A stretch of 64,000 nucleotides of DNA from a candidate division WOR-3 bacterium (lineage in GTDB: Bacteria; Hydrothermota; Tepidihabitantia; Tepidihabitantales; Tepidihabitantaceae). Where the stretch lies: contig JBDRTY010000002.1 of NCBI GenBank assembly GCA_039801085.1, positions 193,339 to 257,338 of the forward strand, in the 5' to 3' direction. Below the pieces are notes generated by a model, which worked only from the letters and a program-made list of their open reading frames with translations, was not told where the DNA came from and did no database searches. The first letter of the stretch is position 1; each line of letters starts with the position of its first letter. A program made the translations under genes and the position numbers. This document shows, in pieces, positions 54 to 63,002 of the stretch.

Positions 54-127
54 TGGGCGATACCTGAATTGAACAGGTGACCTCCTCCTTGTAAGGGAGG
101 CGCTCTCGCCAACTGAGCTAATCGCCC
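54..127 (-). tRNA. tRNA-Val (anticodon TAC)
   Basis: The reverse complement folds as a cloverleaf: a 7-bp acceptor stem (GGGCGAT/ATCGCCC), the D-arm GCTC-AGTTGGCGA-GAGC, the anticodon stem CCTCC/GGAGG with loop CTTACAA (anticodon TAC), and the T-arm ACCTG-TTCAATT-CAGGT. It resembles canonical bacterial tRNA-Val(UAC). CCA is not encoded. Confidence 0.85.
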
Positions 128-389
128 TTGGCTAAATCATAGCGGAGAAAAGGTGGAATGTCAAACCCTTCAGCCGGTTTGTGCCGGACTGACACCGGAC
201 TCGGCAGACAGAAACCGGGGCGGACAGACTCCTGCCCGCGGTGGGGGGAACTGCGGGCAGGGCAGGGATTTCGGGGGTGTGATTATGTAAATATATGATA
301 AAATATAACTTGGATAAACAGGCAGATTAACGGTGAAATCCGGGCGGATTTAAGGCTCTAACTGGATGGAGAACGAAAGGAGGAAAAGT

Positions 390-770
390 ATGAAAAAACG
401 GAATGCACCCGGCATCAGCCGGGTTGAACAGCAGGTGCTCAACTACCTCAAACGGCAGGACCCGGACGATATCGCCCTGCATTTTGCCCGGCAGAGGTCC
501 AGGATGGTGGCAAACTACTACCTGTATGCGATAAAGGCGGACCGGATTTACCGGCTGGTCTGTGAGCTTACCGGACAGGCAGGGGTGGCGCCTCCAGCCC
601 GGCGGCTGTATTACTCCTTTGCCCTGGAGCTGGAAAAGCTGTATCGCACCCGGCGGGACCAGGACCTCGCAACCGAGATTCAGATCCGGCGCTACAAATG
701 GACGGTCCGGGGTCTGGACCCGGAACTGCTGGAGAGGCTGGAAAAATTACTGCGGAGTGAAATCGGGTGA
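390..770 (+). CDS. hypothetical protein (about 126 aa), GC-rich, no recognisable domain
   Basis: An ORF with a strong SD (AGGAGG, 7 nt spacer) precedes the ATG at 390, which is internal to the track ORF 366..770. Its 3' end is convergent with the STAND gene. Confidence 0.5.
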   Translation: MKKRNAPGISRVEQQVLNYLKRQDPDDIALHFARQRSRMVANYYLYAIKADRIYRLVCELTGQAGVAPPARRLYYSFALELEKLYRTRRDQDLATEIQIRRYKWTVRGLDPELLERLEKLLRSEIG

Positions 771-783
771 GAGCAGACGGGTT

Positions 784-2748
784 TTATTCCCCTGACCGCT
801 GAAACCGCTTAATCTTCTTGATTATCTCCTCGGCCAGCAGCTCCGGCTCAAGCTCTATAGCCTTCTGCCAGTCCCGGACTGCCTGCTCCAGCTTGCCCTG
901 ATCTTCATAGGCGTTTCCGCGGTTGAAATAGGCTTTGGGGTAGTCGGGCTTGAGCTTGATTGCCGTTGAGTAGTCCTGGATTGCTGTGTCCAGCTCGCCC
1001 TTCAGGTAATAGGTGGCTCCGCGGTTGTTATATGCTTCGGGGTCGTCGGGTTTGAGCTTGATTGCCTCGGAGAAGTCCTGGATTGCTGTGTCCAGCTCGC
1101 CCTTTTGGTAATAGGCGTTTCCGCGGTTGTTATATGCTTTGGGGTCGTCGGGTTTGAGCTTGATTGTCTTGGAGTAGTCCTGGATTGCTGTGTCCAGCTC
1201 GCCCTTTTTTGCATAGGCGTTTCCGCGGTTGTTATATGCTTTGGGGTCGTCGGGTTTGAGCTTGATTGCCTTGGAGAAGTCCTGGATTGCTGTGTCCAGC
1301 TTGCCCTGATCTGCATAGGCCACTCCGCGGTTGGTGTAGGCATCGGCGTAATCGGGCTTGAGCTCGATTGCCCGGGTAAGCATTTGTATTTCTGCATCAA
1401 CAAGATTTTTGTCTTTAACCGGTCCTGAAGAATGTTCAATCAGAACTGCGGTTGCCAGCGAAAAAAGGAATTCGGTGTGGCTGGAGTTCAGGTTTGATGC
1501 CTTTGCAATTTTTCCAAGATGATTACGGATGGTTTGGTTGCTGAGCCTCAGCCGGTCGGTTATTATTTTTCGAGATATGAATGGGTGCCAGGTGGAAATC
1601 CGGTTTTGGCTCCGGCTGATCACCCGCTTCCTCTCCAGTTCTGCCAGATTTACCTCATTGTCATAAAGTTCAGTGAAAATGTCCTCGGGATAATCTAAAC
1701 CATATCGGTTGACAATCAGGAGCGGGGTCATCAGCTCCTGCTGTTGGGGTGTGAGCGGATTCCAGAAGTCATCAACCGCCTTATCAAATGAAGCTTTGCC
1801 GGTGCTGACGAGCATCACAAGCATCGGGAATATACCCTGCGCAAGGGCAACCATTTCCGGCTTGCCGCGAAACCTCTTAATATAATCCCCGGCTTCGCTC
1901 TCAGTCAGCTGGAGCTCAAATTTTTCAAAATTATATGGAGCGAGATTTTCCCGAACATTAACCTCCCAGACAGCGGTCTGTTCCACCAGTATCAGAGGGA
2001 TATCAAGGCTTTGAGTATGGATGTTGTTGATCAGGCTTACAACCTCATCCTTATAAAGTGCGACATTATCAATGAAAACCAGTTTCTTCTGACCGTTGAA
2101 CTCCGGCTCCTGCAGATAGTGGAGCGCCTTCTGAGCATCGATTTTGCCGTCGCTGATAAAGGGACAGTACTCCTGCTGAAAAAGGTCATAAGCGAGACGC
2201 ATCATCAGGACCGACTTTCCCGAACCGCTGTTCCCCAGGAGGAGGATGTTTTTACCCTTTTTGATGGTATCCAGAATTTTATCTTTCAGCGCCCGTCTGA
2301 TGTCAAAATTATCAATAATGACATTCCAGGTGGGCTTGAAACCGGAGCAGAACTGCTGTTTGTCTGTTTCTGCCCGGCTCCGGTCAATTGTGCTCAGAAC
2401 TGAGGTCAGCGGTTTCAGCCCGCAGGCGGTAATGTAGGATTTCCATTTTTCAGTCAGCTTGTTATAGTCCTGAGTGTATTGTTCAAACTCCTGTTTCAGT
2501 TGATCCAAATTTTTCTGTTCAAGGCTGATTTTTGATTTTTTGCACTGTTCAAAGAAGGAGTAAACAAGCCAGATTGTGCCCAGAAACAGCGGTTGACCGG
2601 CAGTCGCTGCCGGCACAACAATTTTAAAAAAATTTTCAACAAAGGGCTGGTCCAGACCAAGGGCACTGCCGAGTTTTTCAATGCTGTAAATACCGCTTCT
2701 CAGCGTTGTGGCTATACTTTCCTTCAGCGACTGGAATTCAAAATTCAC
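784..2748 (-). CDS. STAND-like P-loop NTPase with N-terminal hydrophobic segment and coiled coil, mid-protein LuxR/GerE HTH and five or six C-terminal TPR repeats
   Basis: Walker A is LLLGNSGSGKSV, followed by a hhhhD box (KLVFIDNV). A LuxR-type HTH (LSNQTIRNHLGKIAKASNL) aligns to GerE helix 2-3. There are 5-6 consecutive 34-aa TPRs (AYNNRGNAY..GELDTAIQDYS..AIKLKPDDP). A 24-residue hydrophobic stretch (IVVPAATAGQPLFLGTIWLVYSFF) lies near the N-terminus. The gene GC (about 47-52%) is well below the backbone. Confidence 0.75.
   Translation of the reverse strand: MNFEFQSLKESIATTLRSGIYSIEKLGSALGLDQPFVENFFKIVVPAATAGQPLFLGTIWLVYSFFEQCKKSKISLEQKNLDQLKQEFEQYTQDYNKLTEKWKSYITACGLKPLTSVLSTIDRSRAETDKQQFCSGFKPTWNVIIDNFDIRRALKDKILDTIKKGKNILLLGNSGSGKSVLMMRLAYDLFQQEYCPFISDGKIDAQKALHYLQEPEFNGQKKLVFIDNVALYKDEVVSLINNIHTQSLDIPLILVEQTAVWEVNVRENLAPYNFEKFELQLTESEAGDYIKRFRGKPEMVALAQGIFPMLVMLVSTGKASFDKAVDDFWNPLTPQQQELMTPLLIVNRYGLDYPEDIFTELYDNEVNLAELERKRVISRSQNRISTWHPFISRKIITDRLRLSNQTIRNHLGKIAKASNLNSSHTEFLFSLATAVLIEHSSGPVKDKNLVDAEIQMLTRAIELKPDYADAYTNRGVAYADQGKLDTAIQDFSKAIKLKPDDPKAYNNRGNAYAKKGELDTAIQDYSKTIKLKPDDPKAYNNRGNAYYQKGELDTAIQDFSEAIKLKPDDPEAYNNRGATYYLKGELDTAIQDYSTAIKLKPDYPKAYFNRGNAYEDQGKLEQAVRDWQKAIELEPELLAEEIIKKIKRFQRSGE
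900..1350. repeat. Four to five near-identical tandem 102-nt repeats encoding the TPR units of the STAND gene
   Basis: The units match at the nucleotide level (gcgtttccgcggttgttatatgctttggggtcgtcgggtttgagcttgattgcct... repeated with period 102). Spurious ORFs 1002..1439(-) and 1105..1428(+) arise from this repeat. Confidence 0.8.
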
Positions 2749-2963
2749 AGTTGGGATATCATATTTTCAGGAGGGGTGCTGTCAATATCCGCAGAAAAAG
2801 GAAAGGTTTTTATCATCAGTTTTCCGGCGAGCTCCTGCTGACATCAGCGGTTTGTTACCGCTTCACTTTAAACAGATCCTGAGGCTTTGCATCTGTGATT
2901 TCGAGTGCAGCGGTCAGCACCTCTTTTTAGTAGTCATTTCTCCCGGCACCTTTTTTATCTCTT

Positions 2964-3074
2964 GTCATTTCGAGCGACGCCCCGAATGGGCGGAGTCGAG
3001 AAATCGCTCCTCTGTATTCATTTTGCATTGCAAAAGGGATTCCTCGACTCGGCTTACGCCTCGCTCGGAATGAC
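2964..3074. repeat. Structured repeat element, copy A: nested inverted repeats, possible operator or small RNA
   Basis: The outer 13-bp stem is GTCATTTCGAGCG...CGCTCGGAATGAC. The inner stem is GAGTCGAG...CTCGACTC. The core palindrome is TTTTGCAtTGCAAAA. It lies in the 620-bp divergent intergenic region between the STAND gene and the ABC transporter. Confidence 0.5.
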
Positions 3075-3140
3075 AGCAAGGAAGAGCACGGCACGGCCGT
3101 AAGATTAAGGCCATCTTAACCGGAGCACTGCCAACATCCG

Positions 3141-3256
3141 GTCATTGCGACCGGAGCGAAGCCGGAGGCGGAGCGGAGTAGAGAAATCGCTTCTCGGTAT
3201 TCATTTTGCCCGGCAAAAGCGATTCTTCGAGCCGGCTGTGCTTCGCCCTAAATGAC
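3141..3256. repeat. Structured repeat element, copy B (paralogue of copy A with compensatory stem changes)
   Basis: It shares GTCATT..., AGAAATCGCTT...AAGCGATTCTT (complementary arms) and the core TTTTGCCcGGCAAAA. The loop TATTCATTTTGC..GCAAAAG is conserved with copy A. Confidence 0.5.
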
Positions 3257-3383
3257 GGAAGGGTGCGAAGTGAACAAGGAATTCCGGATGGAGAATACCG
3301 GCAGGTCATAATGACCGGTTAAATTGAGCTCGGGTTTTTACGGCACAGCTTGCGGGTGCGGGTTTTAATTGTTAAACTTGGGA

Positions 3384-5366: not shown

Positions 5367-6743
5367 TTAACGGTTTCTGCCCGGACCGCGGGCAAGCGAG
5401 GCGAAAATTCCCAGAAAACAGAGCAGACTGAAAAGGGCAAAGCCCAGACGGAACACAGGCAGAAGACCGGGTGCATTGCCGGGTTGCAGTTTTACCGGAC
5501 CGACAAAGATGCCCAGCAGCATCATCGCCAGCCCGAGAGAAAGGCTCTGACCGAGCAGGCGCATGGTGGCAAGGATGGCCGAGCCGGTGCTGTAGTCTGC
5601 CGGAGCGAGGGAACCCATGACCGCACTGGTGTTGGGTGCGGAGAACAGGGCAAAGCCGAAGCCCAGAACCAGTAAAGCAGAGATTATCAGCCCGAGCGGT
5701 GTGTCCGGACCGAGCAGGGCAAAAAGTCCGAGCCCGAGAGTTGTCAGTCCCATGCCGACCGAGGCGAGCAGGCGTGGTTCGTGCCGGTCCGCAAGCCTGC
5801 CGGTCAGGGGCGAGAAGAGCGCCATGACCACCGGCTGGCAGACCAGAATCATGCCTGCGGTCTGGACATCAATCTGCCGGAGATACTGGAGATAGAGGCT
5901 GAGCAGAAATCCGACCGCAGCGGTTGCAGCGTAATTGATGAGTGCGGCAAGATTGGAGAAGGTGAAGGTCCGGTTGGTGCGCAACAGCTGAAGGTTCAGG
6001 AGTGGGCTGGCGGTCCGTCTTTCCCAGAACAGGAATGCCAGCAGGCTGAAGGCGCCGGCGATGCTCAGAATGATGGCGGTGCGGTCCGGAATCCGGGTCA
6101 GACCGAAAAGCAGTCCCAGGACACCGGCGGCATAAATCACAGCACCGGTGAGGTCAAATTTCGCAGCACTGCCGGATGCGGAGTCGGGGATTGCCGGGCT
6201 CATCAGCAGGGCGGCAAGGCTGAAGGGCAGATTGATGCCGAACACCATGCGCCAGCCCAGATACCGGGTGATGATACCGCCGAGAAAGGGTCCGAGCGAA
6301 AGGCCGAGATAGGTAACTGCGGTGTTGATGCCCAGTGCCCAGCCCCTTCTTTCCCGCGGATAGACCGCGGTGAGGATGGCGATACCGGTGGCAAATATCA
6401 TTGCGCCCGCAATGCCCTGCAGAAGCCGGCAGATCAGCAGCAGCGTGCCCGAAGGCGCAAGCGTCGCACCGAGCGAGGCGAGCGTATAGGTCCCAAGACC
6501 GAGGTTGAAGATTGTCCGCCGGTGATAGATGTCCGCAAGCCGGCCGAAGGGGAGCAAGAGGATTGCTGAACTTAGAAGTGCGGCAGTGGGCAGCCAGCCC
6601 AGGGTGATCGCATCCAGACCGAGGTCCTTGCCGATTGCAGGCAGGGCGATGTTGATTGATGAGCTCATAAACGGGGTGACAAATGAGCTGATGCTCGTGG
6701 CAACCAGAGTTAAAACCCGGACCCGGGATTCAGTTACTGCCAC
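5367..6743 (-). CDS. MFS transporter (DHA2/EmrB-like, about 14 TMS)
   Basis: TM1 and the conserved ALP(A/T)IGKDLG motif are present, with many TM segments. The track ORF runs to 6971, but its first 70 codons are Pro/Ser-rich and overlap the upstream gene. A GTG at 6743, overlapping the upstream stop by 4 codons, is the likely start. Confidence 0.7.
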   Translation of the reverse strand: MAVTESRVRVLTLVATSISSFVTPFMSSSINIALPAIGKDLGLDAITLGWLPTAALLSSAILLLPFGRLADIYHRRTIFNLGLGTYTLASLGATLAPSGTLLLICRLLQGIAGAMIFATGIAILTAVYPRERRGWALGINTAVTYLGLSLGPFLGGIITRYLGWRMVFGINLPFSLAALLMSPAIPDSASGSAAKFDLTGAVIYAAGVLGLLFGLTRIPDRTAIILSIAGAFSLLAFLFWERRTASPLLNLQLLRTNRTFTFSNLAALINYAATAAVGFLLSLYLQYLRQIDVQTAGMILVCQPVVMALFSPLTGRLADRHEPRLLASVGMGLTTLGLGLFALLGPDTPLGLIISALLVLGFGFALFSAPNTSAVMGSLAPADYSTGSAILATMRLLGQSLSLGLAMMLLGIFVGPVKLQPGNAPGLLPVFRLGFALFSLLCFLGIFASLARGPGRNR

Positions 6744-8115
6744 TGATGACCACAACCTTCTGGAAACGAAAGCGATGGTCCGGGATGAGATAGACACCGG
6801 TGCGGTTGATTCGGACCCGGGTGCCGGCAGGGGTGAAACCGACAAGGGCAGGGTATGCACCGATGTTAACAATCCGGACAGGTTGCTGGCGCTCGGGCTG
6901 GTTGACACCGGTGGCGGGCAGTCTGCCGCCAAGGTAAAACAGGTCGGTGTTGCCGGCGCTGTCCGCAGCAAAGAGAATGTGCAGGGTCCGGTCCCAGGTT
7001 ACGAGCACCGGCTGTTTCACCTCGTGGGTCGTCAGACCGGTGAGCTGCTGTGGTCCGGTCCAGACACCCGCAGACTCCTGGAGGGCAAAGAGCAGCTGTT
7101 TGTGGTCCGGTGAGCCGGCGGTTTTCCCGCACCAGACCGCAGCGCACCGGTTGTTAAAGAGATGGGCGATTGATGGTGATTCCTGATTAAACTGGACATA
7201 ACCGCTGACAGCGGTGATTTCACTCCATCCCGGCGGGCGCCGGCACCGGTAGCAGATCTGATAATAGGGAGAGTTCGCATCATACCCCTGCCAGACGATA
7301 TGCCACCAGTTGTTACCGCCGGCGGTTACTGCCGGTGAATACTGGGCAAGACCGCCGGCAAGCTCTGACACCTGCTCAATCTCCTGCCAGACGCCGCCGA
7401 TCCGGCGCCGGCACAGCACCTGATCACTAAAGCTGCCCAGATCCCTTCCCAGCCAGACAACACACAGATTACCACCGCTGTCCACCGCTACTGACGCATC
7501 CCGGTGATCCGCGGGATAGGCGGTTATCTGCTCTGCCGGCAGCCAGCCGGTGCTGGGCTGATACTCCTTGTGAAACACCTGCGGGACACCGCCGGTATCC
7601 GGATTGCCGTAGTAGACAATATGCAGTGCACCGGTAACCGGCTGGACCGCAACCGCCGGATACTTGAGATTATAGGGCAGGGGTGCGAAAGCGACCAGGG
7701 TTTCGGCAAGCCACCGGCTGGTGGCAGCGTCAAACCGCTTGTACCAGATACCGCGCAGCTGAGGATAGTTCTGGGCGTCAAGGTGCCAGAGGAGGTGGAT
7801 ATTGCCCGCAGGGTCGGCACCGGCGGTCGGCAGATTGAGGTTGATGTCAAACCGGGTGAGCTGAGACTCGGGGAGCCAGATTCCGCTTCCGGCTTCATAA
7901 AGGCGATACCAGATCTGCCGGAAACCGGCACGGCTGTCCAGCCAGAAGACGAAGATATTTCCCTGCGGGTCAACCGCAATGCTTTTCTGATAGCTCAGTC
8001 CGGGCACCTGCACCGCCGGATGGCTCGTGAGCCGGACCAGGCTGTCCCACTCCACCGCCGGACAGAATGAAAAAATGGTAATGACAAGACCAACGCTAAT
8101 CCGGGAGTGCGCCAT
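6730..8115 (-). CDS. Secreted repeat protein (beta-propeller-like; blades with a G-N-I/L-h-V/L-W motif)
   Basis: It has an N-terminal signal peptide (MAHSRISVGLVITIFSFCPA). Recurring blocks are GNIFVFWLD, GNIHLLWHLD, GNLCVVWLG and NNWWHIVWQG. It is co-directional with, and overlaps, the MFS gene. Confidence 0.55.
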   Translation of the reverse strand: MAHSRISVGLVITIFSFCPAVEWDSLVRLTSHPAVQVPGLSYQKSIAVDPQGNIFVFWLDSRAGFRQIWYRLYEAGSGIWLPESQLTRFDINLNLPTAGADPAGNIHLLWHLDAQNYPQLRGIWYKRFDAATSRWLAETLVAFAPLPYNLKYPAVAVQPVTGALHIVYYGNPDTGGVPQVFHKEYQPSTGWLPAEQITAYPADHRDASVAVDSGGNLCVVWLGRDLGSFSDQVLCRRRIGGVWQEIEQVSELAGGLAQYSPAVTAGGNNWWHIVWQGYDANSPYYQICYRCRRPPGWSEITAVSGYVQFNQESPSIAHLFNNRCAAVWCGKTAGSPDHKQLLFALQESAGVWTGPQQLTGLTTHEVKQPVLVTWDRTLHILFAADSAGNTDLFYLGGRLPATGVNQPERQQPVRIVNIGAYPALVGFTPAGTRVRINRTGVYLIPDHRFRFQKVVVISGSN

Positions 8116-23204: not shown

Positions 23205-23903
23205 GTGATGTGTAGTAATTATGTTAATTATGTATTTAATGATATTCAGTACTGTCTGGTACATCAGCTGATACTGGAGGATAATTTTACTGATGAGCGT
23301 GATATCAGGCTGGTTGCCGGTGGTGACGTGGCGTATGAGAAGAATGGAGAGAGACTGGTGGCTGCGGTTGTGGTCTTTGATCTGAGATTGTTTACGGTTG
23401 TGGAACAGGTGATTTGTGCGGGCAGGGCTGAATTTCCCTATGTTCCGGGATTTCTTTCCTTCCGTGAGGGTCCGGTCCTGCTGATGGCGATCAGGAGGTT
23501 AAAAACCGAGCCGGATGTTTTTCTCTTTGACGGTCAGGGGATCGCCCATCCACGGCGGCTGGGAATTGCGAGCCATCTTGGTGTCCTTCTTGACAGGCCG
23601 GCGATCGGCTGTGCCAAATCCCATCTTTTTGGATTTTATGAGGAGCCGGAAAGGCATAAAGGGGCGTTCAGTTTCATCCGGGACCGCGTGGGTAATGCGG
23701 TCGGGCTGGTTCTGCGGACAAAGGATAACACCCGGCCGGTCTTTGTCTCACCAGGACACAGAGTCAGCGTAAAGATGGCAGGCAAGATTATCCTGCGCTG
23801 TGTGAGCAAATACCGGATACCCGAACCGCTCCGCCAGGCGCACATCAGGGCGCGATCAACTGTCAAGGACTCAGTAGGTTGCATTAAAAATCCAGAAAAG
23901 TGA
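23205..23903 (+). CDS. nfi: Endonuclease V (deoxyinosine 3'-endonuclease)
   Basis: It carries DVAY, FPYVPGFLSFREGP, DGQGIAHPRRLGIASHLG and IGCAKS motifs, colinear with E. coli Nfi. Confidence 0.8.
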   Translation: MMCSNYVNYVFNDIQYCLVHQLILEDNFTDERDIRLVAGGDVAYEKNGERLVAAVVVFDLRLFTVVEQVICAGRAEFPYVPGFLSFREGPVLLMAIRRLKTEPDVFLFDGQGIAHPRRLGIASHLGVLLDRPAIGCAKSHLFGFYEEPERHKGAFSFIRDRVGNAVGLVLRTKDNTRPVFVSPGHRVSVKMAGKIILRCVSKYRIPEPLRQAHIRARSTVKDSVGCIKNPEK

Positions 23904-23939
23904 TTGACAGTGACCCGAAAGCTATTAGTATATTTTGGT

Positions 23940-25553
23940 ATGGCACATCCGGCAAATAAGAGGCAAGCGCAGAGATGTTCTATTTGTCAAAATACGGTTT
24001 ATAATGGACTGGGCAAGCACATCATTAATAATCACGGATATGAGTCATTCAAAAGGATAATATTAAAAGCAAGGACATCTGGGGCTTCAGATGCTGAATT
24101 AGGCCAGCGCTTCGGGATTAATTTGCGTCAGCTTGAAAAAATTATCCTCGAATCCTACGGGTTGAATATTTCCGGATTAGTGCAAGTACAAAAGTCGATA
24201 AAGTGCTTGGAACCTAAAGATTTTAAAGAGGAAACAACAACAGTTTGGAGTTTCAAACAGCGAGGAAATTGGGCAACACATAATGGTAAATACCGGGGTA
24301 ACTGGTCGCCTTATATACCGAGAAATGTAATCTTGAAATACTCAAAGCCGGGGGATTTGGTACTGGACTATTTTGCTGGGAGCGGAACGACAGCAGTTGA
24401 AGCTAAGCTTCTTGGCAGAAGATGTATAGCGATAGATATCAATCCGGCATGCGTTGCGCTTACTAAACAACACCTTGATTTCAGTCTACCTTCAAATTTG
24501 TTTTCTGACAAAATATCGGCTTTTGAGCCCGAGGTTCGAGCAGGTGATGCCAGAAATCTGGGCTGGATGTCTGACGAGAGCGTAGACCTTATTTGCGCTC
24601 ATCCTCCTTATGCGGGGATTATAAAGTATGGTTCGGACATCGATGGTGACCTATCAAACTTGGATATCGATGAATTTCTTTTAGAAATCGGGAAAGTTGC
24701 CCGGGAGAGCTACCGGGTGCTCAAGCCTGGTGGTAAATGTGCGATTTTAATTGGTGATACCAGAAGAAAAAAACACATTCTGCCGCTGGGATTTCAGACA
24801 ATCGATGTTTTCCAGAAAGCCGGATTCAGATTGAGGGAGCTGGTGATTAAGCGCCAGCACAACTGTAAAACTACCGGTTTCTGGTATGATAAGAGCGTGC
24901 AATATAATTTCCTGCTGTTGGCACATGAGTACTTGCCGATTTTCGAGAAAGTTCAGGGATCTTTTCCAGCAGTAATGCGAGAAGCCCGTTCAGCTGCTAT
25001 TTCCTCATATGACTGGACGCACAGAAAGTTCCCCGTTGCTAAAGTTAATGAACTTGAGGTCAGCACAGTATGGACTTTTCAGGAAAAAGTGTTGGAGGAG
25101 CAACTGAATGAAAATGTATTTAAGCGTTATGGGAAAGGTAAAGTCCGGCTGACTGTCTATATTAATCCTCTCCCTAGTAATTCCACCTTTTCGGAATTGA
25201 AGGTTAAGAAAAGTGCCGGGTTGCTGTTTATCAAGGCGAATTCACTCCAGCGACCTGAGTCCAGGGTAGAAGTTGAACAGTATATGAAAACGATAGAGGC
25301 GGTTGTTGATCAGCAATTACCGCATATAGCACCTGATGGTTATCTAGTTATTCAAGTGAAAGACGTCAGGGTTACGGGTTACATCGAACCAATGGCTAAA
25401 AACATCATTAGCTTACTTAAGAAAAATCAGCGATTGTGGTTAAAGGAAATTGTTATTGTTGTCGCTAGTAATCAAGACGAAACGAGTCCGAAATCTGATA
25501 GTGCAGAGCTTGAAATTGTGCACCAATACCTGCTGATATATGATGTAAAATAG
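23940..25553 (+). CDS. DNA methyltransferase (N4/N6 amino-MTase, PF01555-like) with permuted motif order, N-terminal C2H2-like/HTH extension and about 200-aa C-terminal domain
   Basis: Motif I is DLVLDYFAGSGTT (about aa 150). Motif IV is ICAHPPYAG (about aa 232), followed by RVLKPGGKC...W.D...........HE. A degenerate second TVWTF block lies at about aa 380. The N-terminus has CSIC-x10-H-x4-H. The start is ambiguous between the TTG at 23904 and the ATG at 23940. Confidence 0.75.
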   Translation: MAHPANKRQAQRCSICQNTVYNGLGKHIINNHGYESFKRIILKARTSGASDAELGQRFGINLRQLEKIILESYGLNISGLVQVQKSIKCLEPKDFKEETTTVWSFKQRGNWATHNGKYRGNWSPYIPRNVILKYSKPGDLVLDYFAGSGTTAVEAKLLGRRCIAIDINPACVALTKQHLDFSLPSNLFSDKISAFEPEVRAGDARNLGWMSDESVDLICAHPPYAGIIKYGSDIDGDLSNLDIDEFLLEIGKVARESYRVLKPGGKCAILIGDTRRKKHILPLGFQTIDVFQKAGFRLRELVIKRQHNCKTTGFWYDKSVQYNFLLLAHEYLPIFEKVQGSFPAVMREARSAAISSYDWTHRKFPVAKVNELEVSTVWTFQEKVLEEQLNENVFKRYGKGKVRLTVYINPLPSNSTFSELKVKKSAGLLFIKANSLQRPESRVEVEQYMKTIEAVVDQQLPHIAPDGYLVIQVKDVRVTGYIEPMAKNIISLLKKNQRLWLKEIVIVVASNQDETSPKSDSAELEIVHQYLLIYDVK

Positions 25554-25565
25554 AAGGAGGCGATA

Positions 25566-26150
25566 GTGATACATGAACCCAGAGTTGGCGATTTCTGGGG
25601 TAGAGGCCGTTTCCGGAAAAAGATTAGAGAAGTAATTACTCTTTCTAACGGTTGGTATCTGATTAAGACCGATGATTCAAAGTCAGAGCGAGATTTCAAG
25701 GTTAAAGTAATTTTTCAGGTTCAACCTTCAAGGTCGATGACTCCCAAACATGCCCACTTTGCGATTGACTTATATGGCAAAATTTGCGCCGATCAGAGTC
25801 GCGCAAGAAAACTCCTTGATGCGATAATTGAAGTATGGGCCGGCAAGGATGTAAGAGAAGTGATTACTAAATACCAACATGACTGTTACGGACTGCCTGG
25901 ATATCCCCTAGAATATGTCCTTCACGCACTGAACTGGATTTTAGAGCAGGAAGACTTGAATTTTACCGGACGCCCGGCAAGAAAACAGGAGGAGCTGGAC
26001 ATTATTTGTGAAAAGCAGGGAATTAATCTCCTTCCAAGCAGGAAAGGGAGTCACTTGGCGATTGCTTTGCTCTGTGATATTATGAATGGTACGCATCCGG
26101 TTGAGGCACTGCTTAAAGCTAATATCGATGTAGCTCCCCGACTGGCGTAA
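25566..26150 (+). CDS. Hypothetical protein (194 aa), co-operonic with the MTase
   Basis: It has a GTG start with an AAGGAGG SD, 12 nt after the MTase stop. A weak D..D-F-K (PD-(D/E)xK-like) pattern is not convincing. Confidence 0.5.
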   Translation: MIHEPRVGDFWGRGRFRKKIREVITLSNGWYLIKTDDSKSERDFKVKVIFQVQPSRSMTPKHAHFAIDLYGKICADQSRARKLLDAIIEVWAGKDVREVITKYQHDCYGLPGYPLEYVLHALNWILEQEDLNFTGRPARKQEELDIICEKQGINLLPSRKGSHLAIALLCDIMNGTHPVEALLKANIDVAPRLA

Positions 26151-26633
26151 ATGCTGAATATGCGGAGGTCCTGGCAGGAGAAATTAAGGAATAGTAAGGA
26201 TTTGCCTAAGGTGGTTGAAATTACGCCGAAGATGGCGGGAAAATGGGGGACAAAGCCGGGTGATACGGTAGTGATTCCGGCGCCGATTGAGGTTGATGAG
26301 ATTATGAGGATGGTGCCGAAAGGCAGGCTCATCACTATTAATCAGATTCGGGAAATTCTGGCAAAGAGGCATAAGGCAACCATCGGCTGTCCGATTACCA
26401 CCGGTATCTTTGCCGCTATTGCTGCCCGCGCGGCTGATGAGATGGCAAAAGAAGGCAAGCGGGATTTTACCCCTTACTGGCGGACACTGAAACAGGGAGG
26501 AGTGATTAACGAGAAATATCCGGGCGGAGCAGAGGCGCAAAAGAAATTCTTGGAAAATGAGGGGCATAAGGTGGTGAAGAAGGGCAGGAAATTTGCTGTA
26601 TTGGATTATGAGCAGAAATTGCTGCGGTTGTAG
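26151..26633 (+). CDS. MGMT/ATL-fold (O6-alkylguanine-DNA alkyltransferase-like DNA-binding domain) protein lacking the catalytic cysteine
   Basis: Its ATG is 1 nt after the previous stop. It aligns to the Ogt/Ada C-terminal domain: VPKGRLITINQIREIL matches IPCGQVMHYGQLAEQL; AARAAD matches AARAVG; TPYWRTL matches VPCHRVI (Cys becomes Tyr, His becomes Trp); KYPGG matches GYAGG; and KKFLENEGH matches KEWLLRHEG. Confidence 0.55.
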   Translation: MLNMRRSWQEKLRNSKDLPKVVEITPKMAGKWGTKPGDTVVIPAPIEVDEIMRMVPKGRLITINQIREILAKRHKATIGCPITTGIFAAIAARAADEMAKEGKRDFTPYWRTLKQGGVINEKYPGGAEAQKKFLENEGHKVVKKGRKFAVLDYEQKLLRL

Positions 26634-59486: not shown

Positions 59487-59774
59487 TCAGGAGCCGGAAA
59501 CCGGGATGACCGCCGGAACCGGAGTCAGATTCTCAAAATCCACCAGATAGAGTGCGCAGCGAATCCGGCTGTCCGGAAAATCCGGACCGAGGCGCAGCTG
59601 AAGCCGGACTGCGGCGGTGAGCTCGTCAAGATGGTTGTTGATCACCGATTGGGTCGAATCGGCCTTGACCTCACCAATCAGATAATAACATGGAACCGGC
59701 TGTTCGGGGTCAAAAAAGAGGACCTGAAAGGTTTTCATTTTTTTAAATTGCGAGATGGCTGAGATTTTTGCCAT
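59487..59774 (-). CDS. Small hypothetical protein (95 aa) overlapping the 3' end of the nuclease gene
   Basis: It is a GC-rich ORF with no recognisable domain. Confidence 0.35.
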   Translation of the reverse strand: MAKISAISQFKKMKTFQVLFFDPEQPVPCYYLIGEVKADSTQSVINNHLDELTAAVRLQLRLGPDFPDSRIRCALYLVDFENLTPVPAVIPVSGS

Positions 59775-60816
59775 TTAACAATATGCTAAAGTTATTAGAT
59801 TGTGCCTCTTGTTTTAGTAATTTTAAAATATCGCGCTGATGCGGCTTAAGTGCTTGAGGTTTGAATTGACAACCGCTTGTTAGTTTAAGCATAGGGGACG
59901 GTAGATATTTTTGATCCCCGATCCGCACATTTTTAAGATTCACAAGAAGAATCATCTTCAATAACCCATCCTTGATGTCGTCAATAGATGGAATAACGTT
60001 ATTACGGCTGTGCTTGCATTCAATCAACCGTATTTTTCTGTCACGGAGTTCAACTTCATCACAGGTGAAATAATACATCCCCCCAAGGTAATTTCTAATA
60101 GTCAATGTTGCCTTTTTGCCAGAAACTGATTCTTTGGGTTGAATAGTTACGCTTTCTCGATATTGAGCATGCTGAGCCTTGGTCCGTGATGCAGCGATGA
60201 AATTTTCCCGTCCCCTACTTAATTCACTAATTATTTTTTGCGCGCTTTCTGTTGAGTGCATCTGCACCCCAGTTTGTTCAGATATTGTTTTATATGCTCT
60301 TAATGCGCGGTGTGCAATTATGCCAACCTGCTCCAGCTGTTCTAAATTCCAGTGCAAGGCATCGGACTGATATGATAGAAGTTTGTTAATTTCTCGGAGG
60401 ATGTGGTTTATTGCAAAACGCTGGTTTGTAATTTTATTTTTGTAATTTATATTGCGTTCTGCATTATCATAGTAGGAGATTATAACATAAACCCCTAAAA
60501 GACTCATCAAGGAAACGGTATCCCACTGGAGAAAATCCCGGTCACCATCAGCACCCTCATCCTTGTAAACCGGGATTATGGTAATCTTGCGACCCGGGAA
60601 ACTTAATGTATCATATACGCGAGCATAAGGATAAGAGCGGGTTCGTTTTGGTGAAACCCACCAGCTGACCGCTAATTGGTTCTGGCTTTTGAATGTAATG
60701 AGGAAAGCGCCCTGCTGTTTTAACGCTTCGCCAATACTCTGAAACAAGTAAGATTTCAATTCACGGGTAAGATAAGGTTTATATTTAAGTCCGGTGATTT
60801 CAGCTGATACATCCAT
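59743..60816 (-). CDS. Putative Type II restriction endonuclease (PD-(D/E)xK candidate)
   Basis: It overlaps the upstream MTase gene by 17 nt. It is AT-rich (about 38% GC). A candidate catalytic triad is ...TCDEVEL...IECKHS. No other domain was found. Confidence 0.5.
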   Translation of the reverse strand: MDVSAEITGLKYKPYLTRELKSYLFQSIGEALKQQGAFLITFKSQNQLAVSWWVSPKRTRSYPYARVYDTLSFPGRKITIIPVYKDEGADGDRDFLQWDTVSLMSLLGVYVIISYYDNAERNINYKNKITNQRFAINHILREINKLLSYQSDALHWNLEQLEQVGIIAHRALRAYKTISEQTGVQMHSTESAQKIISELSRGRENFIAASRTKAQHAQYRESVTIQPKESVSGKKATLTIRNYLGGMYYFTCDEVELRDRKIRLIECKHSRNNVIPSIDDIKDGLLKMILLVNLKNVRIGDQKYLPSPMLKLTSGCQFKPQALKPHQRDILKLLKQEAQSNNFSILLNGKNLSHLAI

Positions 60817-61711
60817 ACTTTCCGCCTTTGCGTATTATTATTTCAAATGTATCACCATGATGGTCCATTGTCATTTGTCCTGAAAAACCTAACTTTTTTG
60901 ATATTATCGGTAAAAGCGATTTCTTGATTTCAATTCCAATGCTATTACGACCCAACTGCCGTGCAACCTTCATTGTTGTTCCACTGCCGACAAATGGGTC
61001 AAGCACGGTTTCACCAACATAAGAGAAGAGTTTGATAATTCGGTAGGGCAGTTCCTCTGGGAAGGCGGCAATTTCCTTTTCAAGGGGAGAGCCGGGGAGG
61101 ACATTTACCATTTCCCAGAGAGTCATGTACCACTTGTTATCAGAAAATTCTTTTAAATTGATCCGCGATGCTTCTCTGATTTCACGAGGTATTGTTTGAT
61201 AATTAAATTTCCCTTTTTGAAATATAATAATGCTTTCAAGCAGGTTGTCGGGATAAAAATACATGGGGTATGGATTTTGCAGTATTACGCCACTTCTTCG
61301 GCTAATTCGCAAATAGCCGTCAGGTTTTTTCCAAATGATCCGGTCTCGGTATCGGAAACCAACGCTTTGGAATATTTTAATTGCATCAGCGACAATGGGA
61401 AATTTTTCGCCGTTAACAAGCATGTCATCAATGTTTAACACCGCAATCCGACCTTCTTGGAGTACGCGAAAAGTTTCTTTGGCCATTCTTCTGAGTACCC
61501 CCAAATACTGGCCATAGTTTTTAAATAACCCTTTGTAATCAAATGGAGCATTGAAATAAGGTGGCGATGTAACCATTAGATGCACACTTTGGTCGGGGAT
61601 TTCGGGCATTGCCATACAGTTGCCGATGATTAGTTTATGATGGGTTTTGGGGTAAATGTGATCAAACTCAAACTTTGGGGAAACGGTATTATTCTTAGTT
61701 TTAATGTCCAT
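60800..61711 (-). CDS. Beta-class N4/N6 DNA methyltransferase (PF01555)
   Basis: Motif IV (MVTSPPYFN) is N-terminal and motif I (VLDPFVGSGTT) is C-terminal. The middle region is RVLQEGRIAVLNIDD...IIWKK. It is AT-rich. Confidence 0.85.
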   Translation of the reverse strand: MDIKTKNNTVSPKFEFDHIYPKTHHKLIIGNCMAMPEIPDQSVHLMVTSPPYFNAPFDYKGLFKNYGQYLGVLRRMAKETFRVLQEGRIAVLNIDDMLVNGEKFPIVADAIKIFQSVGFRYRDRIIWKKPDGYLRISRRSGVILQNPYPMYFYPDNLLESIIIFQKGKFNYQTIPREIREASRINLKEFSDNKWYMTLWEMVNVLPGSPLEKEIAAFPEELPYRIIKLFSYVGETVLDPFVGSGTTMKVARQLGRNSIGIEIKKSLLPIISKKLGFSGQMTMDHHGDTFEIIIRKGGKYGCIS

Positions 61712-62192
61712 CTTTGATTGTTATTGGGATTATACAAGTCTGTTTTACAGATGTCAATCTGCCCACAGTTAAAATTTGGGCAAGAGCATGAATGGGGCAG
61801 TGTAAAACAGGCTGTTTTAATTGCGCCATTAAATTATTAGAGTCAGCAATCATGATAAATTTAACAGTTGAGCAACGATTCTAGCGGGAAAATTGATTTA
61901 AGATTTTTAATATGAATATATTACAAAATTGGTCTTCTCATTTTTGGGGTATCCCCCCGGCAGTTCCCTATACGGTGGAGGTCAGGGGTTTAGTTGCGGT
62001 GGGGACGGCAGAGGGGTTGGGAATGTAAGTTGCTGTTTTTATTAGCGGTTATGTTTTAGATTATGCCGGGAAATGGCATCTGTTTCCGGTTATGGTGGTT
62101 GTTTGTATCGTTTATTTTTTTATATTTGTGGTATTTGTGGGGATGATATGAGCTTTATAACCGTTTATAACAGCTTTGGTGGTGATGATGAT

Positions 62193-63002
62193 TTAAAATA
62201 TTGGTGATGGTGGAAGGCTGGATGCGGGTGGTGGTGGTTCGGTGGTGGCGATCTCGAGCCGGAACTGTCGGCCATAGGGCTGGTAGCCGACCGCACGGGC
62301 GGTGGCAATCGATGCGGGGTTGAGGTCAGAGGTCAGATAGACCGGTATCCTGCCGGACTTAATCACCGCCCTGGTGGCAAAGGAGAGGCAGGTTTTGCCG
62401 TAGCCTTCGCGCCGTTTTGCCGGAATCGTTCCCGGAACAAGCATCTCCGCAATCTGGTCCTGGAGGTGAGGAACCTCCCAGGTGCCGGCAACCGAGACCG
62501 GAAGGTCCCCTTCAAAGACCGCATAGCAGGTGCCCTCGGCGATGCTTTTGTCAAGGCAGGTGTCGTACAGTCCGGCGTTCCGGAGCGCCGGTATGTCGGC
62601 GGTGGTGAGCGGGCGGCAGGGGTAGAGTTCGACCGCACGGAAGGTGGCGCGGGTGGCAAAGAGGATCGGTCCGGAGAAGGCGCTGACCCGGCCGGAGGCA
62701 TTGAGGGCGCGGGCAACCGTCTCCAGAATCATCCTTCTGCCTTCGGGAAGGTGGAAGATGGTGAGGGGCATGCGGGCGAACAGTTTTCTGAGCGGTGTTT
62801 CCAGTGCCGGCTGGACTGAGATGACACAGCGGCTGCCGGTTGCAATCAGCCAGAGGGCAAAGGGGTTTTCGTAGTGGGGTTCGGGGAGTTCGCGGCGGTT
62901 GGAGGGTATGACCAGTGCCCGGCCCGGAGTGACTTTGGCAAGGTCACATTCCAGGTAAAGGGAGAAGAAGCGGTCGAGGAGGGGACGGACCGTTTCAGAC
63001 AT
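62193..63002 (-). CDS. GNAT-family N-acetyltransferase-like protein
   Basis: The C-terminal half has R-x-x-G-x-G (RREGYGK) and a GNAT-like beta-alpha pattern. Confidence is modest. Confidence 0.45.
   Translation of the reverse strand: MSETVRPLLDRFFSLYLECDLAKVTPGRALVIPSNRRELPEPHYENPFALWLIATGSRCVISVQPALETPLRKLFARMPLTIFHLPEGRRMILETVARALNASGRVSAFSGPILFATRATFRAVELYPCRPLTTADIPALRNAGLYDTCLDKSIAEGTCYAVFEGDLPVSVAGTWEVPHLQDQIAEMLVPGTIPAKRREGYGKTCLSFATRAVIKSGRIPVYLTSDLNPASIATARAVGYQPYGRQFRLEIATTEPPPPASSLPPSPIF

Follow-up and report, generated by a model that had tools for sequence, protein, structure and literature searches.

An Avs5-related STAND NTPase gene at a variable accessory locus of a candidate division WOR-3 bacterium, a candidate compact conflict sensor

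Among solved structures, Avs5 (AVAST type 5; EfAvs5, PDB 9JAP, and 9NC9, 'Helical assembly of AVAST5 filament') is the described system closest, by both profile and fold, to the protein considered here in its nucleotide-binding oligomerisation domain (NOD) module. EfAvs5 is a validated anti-phage SIR2-STAND protein in which defence needs K379 of the Walker A motif and D426 of the Walker B motif; it binds ATP without hydrolysing it, and R453 of its TTR motif is the gamma-phosphate-sensing sensor-1 arginine (PMC11897194). The sensors of characterised Avs proteins envelop whole phage proteins, an example being residues 561–1523 of SeAvs7, and effectors of unknown type, transmembrane effectors and effector-associated domains (EADs) have been recorded among Avs proteins (PMC13581612). 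The gene analysed here encodes a 654-aa signal transduction ATPase with numerous domains (STAND) and C-terminal tetratricopeptide repeats (TPRs). It lies in a stretch of 64 000 nt (the window; contig JBDRTY010000002.1, positions 193 339–257 338, assembly GCA_039801085.1) from a candidate division WOR-3 bacterium, a host lineage known here only from metagenome-assembled genomes. The NOD is kin to Avs5-type NODs and falls in the nSTAND_NTPase5 clade, and with moderate confidence, by analogy with Avs proteins, the gene is read as a compact single-gene defence or conflict sensor resembling nucleotide-binding leucine-rich repeat receptors (NLRs), with the ordinary effector–NTPase–TPR layout.

The likeness to Avs5 comprises a tripartite arrangement of N-terminal module, an NBD (nucleotide-binding domain), an HD (helical domain) and a WHD (winged-helix domain), and C-terminal alpha-helical repeat sensor, together with an equivalent Walker A lysine and Walker B aspartate. 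The window protein differs in having a 125-aa orphan helical module and no SIR2 domain, an NTPase of the nSTAND5 and not the nSTAND3 type, a glutamine at sensor-1 and only five TPRs, and identity to Avs5 is about 18 %. The nSTAND3 model, with which Pfam annotates Avs5 NTPases, was marginal for the window protein (27.1 bits versus a cutoff of 27.2). Avs1–4, Avs7–21 and bacterial NACHT proteins follow the same single-polypeptide logic of effector, NOD and TPR-like sensor, although the characterised Avs sensors are much larger than the approximately 170 aa of consensus-like TPRs found here. Compared with the tripartite Avs scheme, a NOD and a TPR sensor are present, and so is an N-terminal module, in which no effector fold is recognisable. 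Proteins of this kind are already known, as STAND/Avs-like tripartite NTPases with a Pfam family of their own (nSTAND5). Novel here are the orphan N-terminal module, a very compact sensor of five TPRs, the glutamine conserved at sensor-1, the rarity of the family and a series of intact, degraded and empty loci in WOR-3.

The first-pass annotation of the window, made from its letters and open reading frames (ORFs), had described a 654-aa STAND NTPase at 784–2748, with Walker A and B motifs and five to six C-terminal TPRs, of lower GC content than its surroundings and about 650 bp from a tRNA gene; all of this was borne out. The ORF is on the minus strand and begins with GTG, a start with which the aligned N-termini of homologues agree. 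No identical full-length protein is on record in an exact-protein look-up. The protein runs from the orphan N-terminal module through NBD, HD and WHD and a linker to five TPRs and a cap, with the following features.

784..2748, minus strand: STAND NTPase gene, 654 aa (ORF, Pfam, family alignment, structure models, fold search)
2374..2748, minus strand: N-terminal orphan module, aa 1–125, candidate effector or adaptor, conserved only in a small family
1549..2373, minus strand: NOD module, aa 126–400, with pre-NBD segment, NBD, HD and WHD (PF25199, profile, AlphaFold2, Foldseek)
2212..2235, minus strand: Walker A (P-loop) GNSGSGKS, aa 172–179; G-x-GK invariant in a 20-sequence alignment
2065..2082, minus strand: Walker B LVFIDN, aa 223–228; D227 invariant, next residue Asn and not acidic
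1978..1986, minus strand: sensor-1 position VEQ, aa 255–257; Gln257 replaces the gamma-phosphate-sensing Arg (R453 in TTR of EfAvs5)
1594..1749, minus strand: WHD core, aa 334–385, three helices and a beta-hairpin wing (aa 378–380 and 383–385) in both AlphaFold2 models
1585..1587, minus strand: His388 in STWHPFIS, directly after the wing; nearly invariant (at least 90 %), column H264 of alignment A3
1438..1569, minus strand: aa ~394–437, first annotated as a GerE/LuxR helix-turn-helix (HTH), in fact the post-wing WHD helix and linker helices toward the TPRs
784..1347, minus strand: TPR sensor array, five 34-aa repeats (aa 468–637), C-terminal capping helix/tail and stop codon (Pfam, DNA repeats)

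The NBD matched the Pfam model PF25199 (nSTAND_NTPase5), which spans the NBD only, over aa 131–263 with 79.7 bits against a gathering cutoff of 34 (E=2.5e-22, model positions 1–139 of 145), and the homologues P0125, P0129 and P0144 likewise match it. The nSTAND clades were reportedly defined in the conflict-system surveys of the Aravind group. Ahead of the NBD, the conserved segment of the NOD module reads F..G..P.W..I...DI.R. A sequence profile of the NOD matched residues 371–656 of the EfAvs5 chain 9jap_A (E=2.4e-17); in the profile alignment, the Walker A motif aligns with K379 and the Walker B aspartate with D426. A first full-length AlphaFold2 model, built from five sequences, had a predicted local distance difference test score (pLDDT) below 50 over the N-terminus and was only moderate for the NBD, and the fold search was run with a trimmed NOD model from a 20-sequence alignment (pLDDT 83.4, predicted template modelling score 0.67). 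In this model, a five-stranded P-loop domain built of five beta-alpha units comes first, then a helical domain, and last a set of three helices with a beta-wing. Its top Foldseek match in the PDB was again EfAvs5 (9jap_A, E=5.4e-10, TMq 0.56 with the NOD model as query), and the AVAST5 filament 9nc9 was also among the matches (TMq 0.55). SAMD9, Avs4 (8dgf), the Dark apoptosome, NLRP9 and NLRC4 were further matches, with AAA+ proteins more distant.

Of the features that define the STAND superfamily, the Walker A and B motifs, the NBD–HD–WHD series, a winged-helix histidine and C-terminal superstructure-forming repeats were all found. We take His388, on the basis of established family knowledge, to be equivalent to the MHD/LHD-type histidine of STAND winged-helix domains. 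The sensor-1 arginine (TT/SR motif) is missing, its place being taken by Gln257 in all five close homologues; E256 and Q257 are both invariant among them, and distant nSTAND5 relatives have ER or SR. Since Gln257 is invariant across homologues only 32–45 % identical, it is a conserved feature of the clade and not recent damage. The glutamine is accordingly treated as a clade-specific deviation, and membership of the STAND superfamily is kept given the profile and fold matches. The VEQ and DN residues may mark a poorly hydrolysing ATP-binding switch, like that of EfAvs5.

The N-terminal module contains short helices, a hydrophobic stretch with proline and a long predicted helix at aa ~78–108. 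The first-pass annotation had seen a hydrophobic N-terminal helix plus a coiled coil here. A hydrophobic stretch (aa ~43–66) is indeed conserved, within a family pattern at aa ~40–66 that reads ...F.KIVVPAATAGQPLFLGTIWLVYSFF..., but its hydropathy is borderline, and the helix at aa 78–108, like the rest of the N-terminus, was modelled at a pLDDT below 50. The 19-residue Kyte–Doolittle maximum of the module is 1.43 (1.1–1.9 across the family), and the usual threshold for a membrane helix is about 1.6; the stretch is therefore borderline as a predicted membrane helix. A constitutive transmembrane helix gains no support from this value, and the segment is termed a hydrophobic stretch only. P0125, a more distant nSTAND5/TPR protein of 1081 aa, has at the same position a Gly-rich hydrophobic segment with a Kyte–Doolittle value of 1.92, followed by a coiled coil.

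Searches with the N-terminal module gave no relatives beyond the family itself. No Pfam family was found on it in the window sequence and none recurred across ten family members, a 5.8-billion-protein collection searched by profile yielded nothing but two fragments from the family itself, and PDB sequences searched in the same way gave no credible match, the best one (4wzs, E=0.0017) being a coiled-coil-like chance match. Because the module precedes the NOD and the insert described below holds no partner gene, we infer for it an effector role, possibly membrane-active. Coiled-coil NLRs such as the plant ZAR1 resistosome also place a small all-helical module with hydrophobic helices before the NOD, and in ZAR1-type NLRs the NOD drives N-terminal helical bundles that disrupt membranes. 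The comparison is one of analogy only and draws on neither sequence nor fold similarity, and the N-terminal model of the window protein is of low confidence. A more detailed scheme seems improbable in its entirety: a hydrophobic hairpin of the orphan helical bundle, a hitherto undescribed effector of a minimal bacterial NLR, would be freed on NOD oligomerisation and insert into the membrane in the manner of ZAR1 or MLKL, a peptide-sized ligand would be read by the fast-evolving five-TPR array, and the NOD with its sensor-1 glutamine would bind ATP without hydrolysis.

Residues 1–458 of the protein were searched exhaustively with phmmer against 1.84 billion cluster representatives. The TPR part was left out; an earlier search with the full-length protein had been swamped by TPR matches and gave only four full-length relatives. 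Four representatives at E<1e-30 share the N-terminus, NOD and linker, and about 110 further representatives match the NTPase only. The family is thus rare and patchy, with the N-terminal module joined to a five-TPR sensor in only about four to five sequence clusters of the public data. Host GC content across the close family ranges from 0.32 to 0.58 (0.32 to 0.53 for the hosts of L002, L003 and L004). Many of the NTPase-only relatives are about 1030 aa long, with the NTPase starting near residue 315, and the N-termini of distant nSTAND5 relatives are SIR2_2, HD-CE with HEPN_Swt1, or CHAT with SIR2. These SIR2, HEPN and CHAT N-termini are typical immune effectors. The neighbourhoods of the homologues are unrelated to each other: L002 has CinA and LigT genes, L003 a ThiF gene and L004 an AbiJ_NTD3/Abi_C gene. 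In L004 (JGI 3300033144 Ga0366838_1074478, 574–1803), the homologue P0063 (34 % identity) lies directly downstream of the AbiJ_NTD3 + Abi_C gene, so a defence gene is a neighbour in one of three independent homologue contexts. Independently, the STAND gene of L002 also has a lower GC content (0.41) than its surroundings (0.53). A phage collection gave no match and a plasmid collection two distant NTPase-only matches.

Composition sets the window gene apart from its surroundings, as the first-pass annotation had noticed. The GC content of the coding sequence is 0.488 and that of the insert 0.492, against about 0.60–0.63 in the adjacent 3–18 kb; along the sequence, GC is 0.44–0.49 across 1250–3000 and about 0.60–0.63 in the following ~15 kb. 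At third codon positions it is 0.59 in the STAND gene versus 0.72–0.77 in flanking genes. Windows of the same size elsewhere in the 64 kb have a mean GC of 0.561±0.045, the lowest being 0.405. The dip at the STAND gene is genuine, though not the lowest of the window, and the gene is compositionally foreign.

The locus was compared across WOR-3 relatives. Thirty-one WOR-3 loci were fetched via the flanking ABC-2 permease and examined by tblastn, ARAGORN and per-locus blastn. The features of the locus and the three informative relatives, with permease identity to the window, are as follows.

759..3335, no strand: accessory insertion of ~2.57 kb that comprises the STAND gene with 577 bp of non-coding DNA upstream of it (empty site, junction alignment, GC)
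366..770, plus strand: small ORF, 134 aa, flanking the insert and outside it; present in L001 (99 %), L005 (80 %) and L018 (78–79 %)
54..127, minus strand: tRNA-Val(TAC) (ARAGORN; Rfam 70.8 bits), context only; same synteny in L001, L005 and L018
2962..3076, no strand: palindromic hairpin-forming element, copy 1; direct-repeat family D2, single-stranded DNA fold −35.6 kcal/mol, z=−6.7
3140..3258, no strand: copy 2 of the palindromic element; 65-nt core that is 85 % identical, z=−2.5
L001 (permease identity 98.7 %): intact STAND gene, 626 aa
L005 (JAOABP010000003.1, 7822–9061; permease identity 94 %): internally deleted, degraded STAND allele
L018 (permease identity 84 %): tRNA-Val, small ORF, then abcA; window 744–3325 replaced by ~15 bp, an empty site

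The presence/absence comparison at the tRNA-Val site proposed by the first-pass annotation thus found the locus intact in the window and L001, degraded in L005 and empty in L018. In L005, stop codons come after about 18 first STAND codons, and downstream in the same frame lies a TPR-only ORF of 353 aa with 9–10 repeats and the C-terminal tail of the window protein; the effector and NOD are gone and a free-standing TPR protein is kept. In the approximately 27 WOR-3 loci that are more distant, the ABC operon occurs without a STAND gene. Accessory in status, the STAND block was acquired horizontally in one WOR-3 lineage, and among close relatives it has been gained, has decayed or is absent. The 10-bp direct repeat that bounds the insert, GA(A/G)(A/C)TCGGGT, is imperfect; it is located at 759–768 and 3326–3335 and occurs once in the empty site, and being short it could be microhomology. 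The right junction keeps the small ORF's ancestral 3' end, and the polarity of the event is thus insertion. The insertion replaced the last few codons of the small ORF, and its C-terminus therefore differs between occupied and empty sites. The small ORF had no match in Pfam, NCBIfam or PADLOC.

The first-pass annotation had pointed to the nearby tRNA gene as a classic integration site, a reading that the locus does not sustain. The tRNA gene is 657 bp from the 3' end of the STAND ORF. The insertion point, 3' of the small ORF, lies on the 5' side of the tRNA at a distance of ~630 bp. Since the 3' end of tRNA-Val faces away from the insert and the conserved 134-aa ORF intervenes, the site is a variable spot near a tRNA gene and not a tRNA-integrated island. 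No integrase or transposase ORF was found in the ~2.57-kb insert, and a tRNA-targeted island was also rejected on the grounds that the insert sits between the small ORF and abcA and that its only repeat is unrelated to the tRNA.

In the closest comparison, between the window and L001, the flanks are ~99 % identical and the first 130 STAND codons are 100 % identical in DNA. Across residues 131–455 there are 14 nonsynonymous and three synonymous differences, equal to the neutral expectation; in the pooled flanks there are six nonsynonymous and ten synonymous differences, which departs from neutrality (P=0.003), and the two ratios differ (Fisher P=0.013). The TPR array (TPR_11, E=1.7e-61) is encoded by tandem 102-bp repeats and comprises five units in the window against four in L001, the arrays being internally homogenised to different residues (...LDTAIQ and KLKPDDPKAYNNRGNAY in the window, ...LDKAIP and ELKPDLAEAYNNRGLAY in L001). 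Among 12 in-phase repeats taken from the three alleles, variation within the 34-aa unit was highest at positions 13, 26, 9, 24, 5 and 12; of these, 5, 9, 12 and 13 presumably belong to the ligand-binding, concave face of helix A. The array changes rapidly between near-identical genomes. The substitution and TPR patterns, on small counts, fit diversifying sensor evolution or relaxed constraint alike. The C-terminal tail of the L001 protein also differs (…LKPELLPEDIKRFLQGDNPPGDALMTYQ), the window and L005 sharing …LEPELL.EEI..KI.RFQRSGE, which suggests a small indel or frameshift in L001.

The defence reading is favoured because the NOD is kin to Avs5-type NODs, immune effectors occur in the clade, the family is rare and patchy, the locus is accessory and the sensor turns over fast. 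Two further links to immunity, the AbiJ_NTD3/Abi_C neighbour of one close homologue and the DNA methylases in the other low-GC patches of the window (described below), are anecdotal as an association with defence genes. The first-pass annotation had left two options, an atypical transcription regulator or a compact defence STAND, and the second is the better reading. From Avs and NLR mechanisms (PMC13581612, PMC11897194) we infer, by analogy, a defence role, ligand-triggered oligomerisation and action by the N-terminal module. The TPR array would bind a foreign or danger-associated protein or peptide, relieving autoinhibition of the ATP-bound NOD, which would then oligomerise and gather the N-terminal modules. 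Clustered modules might act as the effector, plausibly by exposing hydrophobic helices that perturb the membrane, or might alternatively recruit a partner not linked to the STAND gene; growth arrest or death of the infected cell would follow.

Several observations weigh against a defence role. The collections searched held no phage match and no close plasmid match, and the immediate flanks (tRNA, small ORF, ABC transporter, MFS transporter) contain no other defence genes. PADLOC models, in a database dating from 2023, matched only generic P-loop or TPR segments of the window protein and close homologues (mad8, PDC-S01, PrimPol TPR), none covering the protein. Pfam, PDB and the protein-collection searches gave neither a recognisable effector fold nor a homologue for the N-terminal module, and its hydrophobic stretch is under the usual threshold for a membrane helix. 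The sensor-1 glutamine and the Walker B DN may impair the ATPase cycle, the sensor has five TPRs (~170 aa), a number far below that of characterised Avs sensors, and the neutral-like 14:3 ratio could mean decay and not an arms race.

Some of these observations would suit a signalling or scaffolding STAND ATPase outside immunity, a TPR-mediated protein-interaction switch for a host process that is strain-variable by chance. Many bacterial STAND/TPR proteins have no defence role, a TPR array that is short and consensus-like typifies general protein-interaction modules, and the window protein has no known effector domain or PADLOC match and has housekeeping genes as its immediate neighbours. A 2026 survey of STAND proteins placed many clades in a non-defence class (PMC13581612). 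A host function of this kind is nevertheless unlikely, if a serious possibility, for a locus of foreign GC content whose state varies (present, degraded or absent) between genomes with flanks of 84–99 % identity, in a rare and patchy family whose sensor turns over quickly and whose NOD relatives mostly have SIR2, HEPN or CHAT immune architectures or are Avs5. The degraded allele of L005 raises the question of decay in the window itself, where the gene might be a decaying or inactive remnant of a once functional STAND system, with an ORF that is intact yet drifting toward loss, as in L005. The 14:3 ratio at neutral expectation beside flanks under purifying selection, the replacement of the sensor-1 arginine by glutamine, the Walker B DN, the internal deletion and stop codons of L005 and the altered C-terminal tail of L001 are all consistent with such decay. 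Against this, the ORF is intact in two genomes (654 aa in the window), the N-terminal 130 codons are identical in DNA between the window and L001, and E256, Q257 and other motif residues are invariant across homologues of 32–45 % identity. EfAvs5, moreover, is functional though it binds ATP without hydrolysis (PMC11897194). A remnant is on balance a doubtful explanation.

The remaining alternative, an atypical regulator of the LuxR/MalT (LAL) type with an internal HTH that would control the divergent ABC transporter operon, derives from the first-pass annotation, which had placed a GerE-type HTH in the middle of the protein and called the domain order unusual. MalT is itself a STAND protein with TPR-like repeats, the window gene and abcA are transcribed divergently from a 620-bp intergenic region, and a weak local resemblance to GerE (E=0.23) and HTH_30 (E=0.015) is found at aa ~394–437. 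When the middle segment was scanned separately against Pfam at a permissive threshold, however, both stayed below their cutoffs (GerE 11.6 bits versus 23.5, covering 23 of 57 model positions; HTH_30 15.6 versus 27), as did the MalT-type parts (AAA_16 18.5 bits versus 32.6; TPR_MalT 24.1 versus 45), and no LuxR-type fold was among the Foldseek PDB matches of the NOD model. The supposed recognition helix, RLSNQTIRNHLGKI (aa 401–414), is not conserved in the family alignment, and homologues are acidic there (e.g. ...NDREISEELKKF and ...NNAGLAEEVEQF). In the AlphaFold2 models, helices occupy aa 389–400, 404–415 and 422–441, the first carrying His388, and all follow the WHD wing. On sub-threshold scores, poor conservation and this structural position, a LuxR/GerE HTH is rejected; a failure to score as LuxR/GerE in profile searches was what the first-pass annotation had itself named as refuting its reading. 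To our knowledge, every STAND protein contains a winged-helix domain and linker region within its NOD, a point overlooked in the earlier statement that Avs proteins have no HTH. Because aa ~394–437 lies in a canonical NBD–HD–WHD module, the domain order (N-terminal module, NTPase, winged helix, TPR) is the standard one for STAND proteins, and the protein is therefore not to be counted as a new class of regulator.

MalT/LAL regulators share with the window protein a STAND NTPase and a helical-repeat sensor, but the C-terminal LuxR/GerE HTH of that group is lacking, and the protein has neither a C-terminal DNA-binding domain nor one of the LuxR type. The homologues lie in unrelated neighbourhoods. 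The ABC operon, furthermore, is kept intact in about 30 related WOR-3 genomes that lack the STAND gene, and the gene is therefore not its dedicated regulator. Regulation of the ABC operon by this protein is accordingly very improbable.

The ~115-nt palindromic element has two copies only in the 64-kb window, both within the non-coding stretch that precedes the STAND gene; L001 has the element too, and L005 and L018 lack it. Rfam matched the tRNA only and gave nothing for the elements or the rest of the upstream non-coding region, and they could be a miniature inverted-repeat transposable element (MITE)-like or repetitive extragenic palindromic (REP)-like element, or a regulatory structure. L001 (1824–1846) also lacks 166 bp of the upstream non-coding DNA seen at 2798–2963 of the window. 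Beyond the ABC transporter, a major facilitator superfamily (MFS) transporter ORF of 534 aa at 5367–6971 (minus strand, TTG start) shares ~240 bp with the 3' end of an ORF of 461 aa at 6730–8115, also on the minus strand, that has no Pfam match. The MFS_1 match starts at residue 93, and the true start of the transporter is therefore probably further downstream. Two further low-GC patches contain N6_N4 DNA methylase genes. One, at 23205–26633 (GC 0.43–0.45), has the methylase at 23904–25553 (plus strand) and an endonuclease V gene at 23205–23903; the other, at 59743–63002 (GC 0.40), has it at 60800–61711 (minus strand). ORFs without a Pfam match adjoin the methylases (25566–26150, 26151–26633, 59743–60816 and 62193–63002), and the two patches are probably acquired restriction-modification systems.

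For annotation, the analysis has a corrective value, in that what looks like a LuxR HTH in the middle of this protein is the intrinsic winged-helix and linker region of a STAND NTPase. If the reading as a compact conflict sensor is true, the protein would be among the smallest NLR-like immune receptors, with 654 aa and a five-repeat sensor, and would serve as a compact scaffold on which to ask what smallest number of TPRs is enough for sensing. Its N-terminal module, which has no known relatives, would be a candidate new effector domain, and the allelic series of intact, degraded and empty loci in WOR-3 would display the speed at which such genes turn over.

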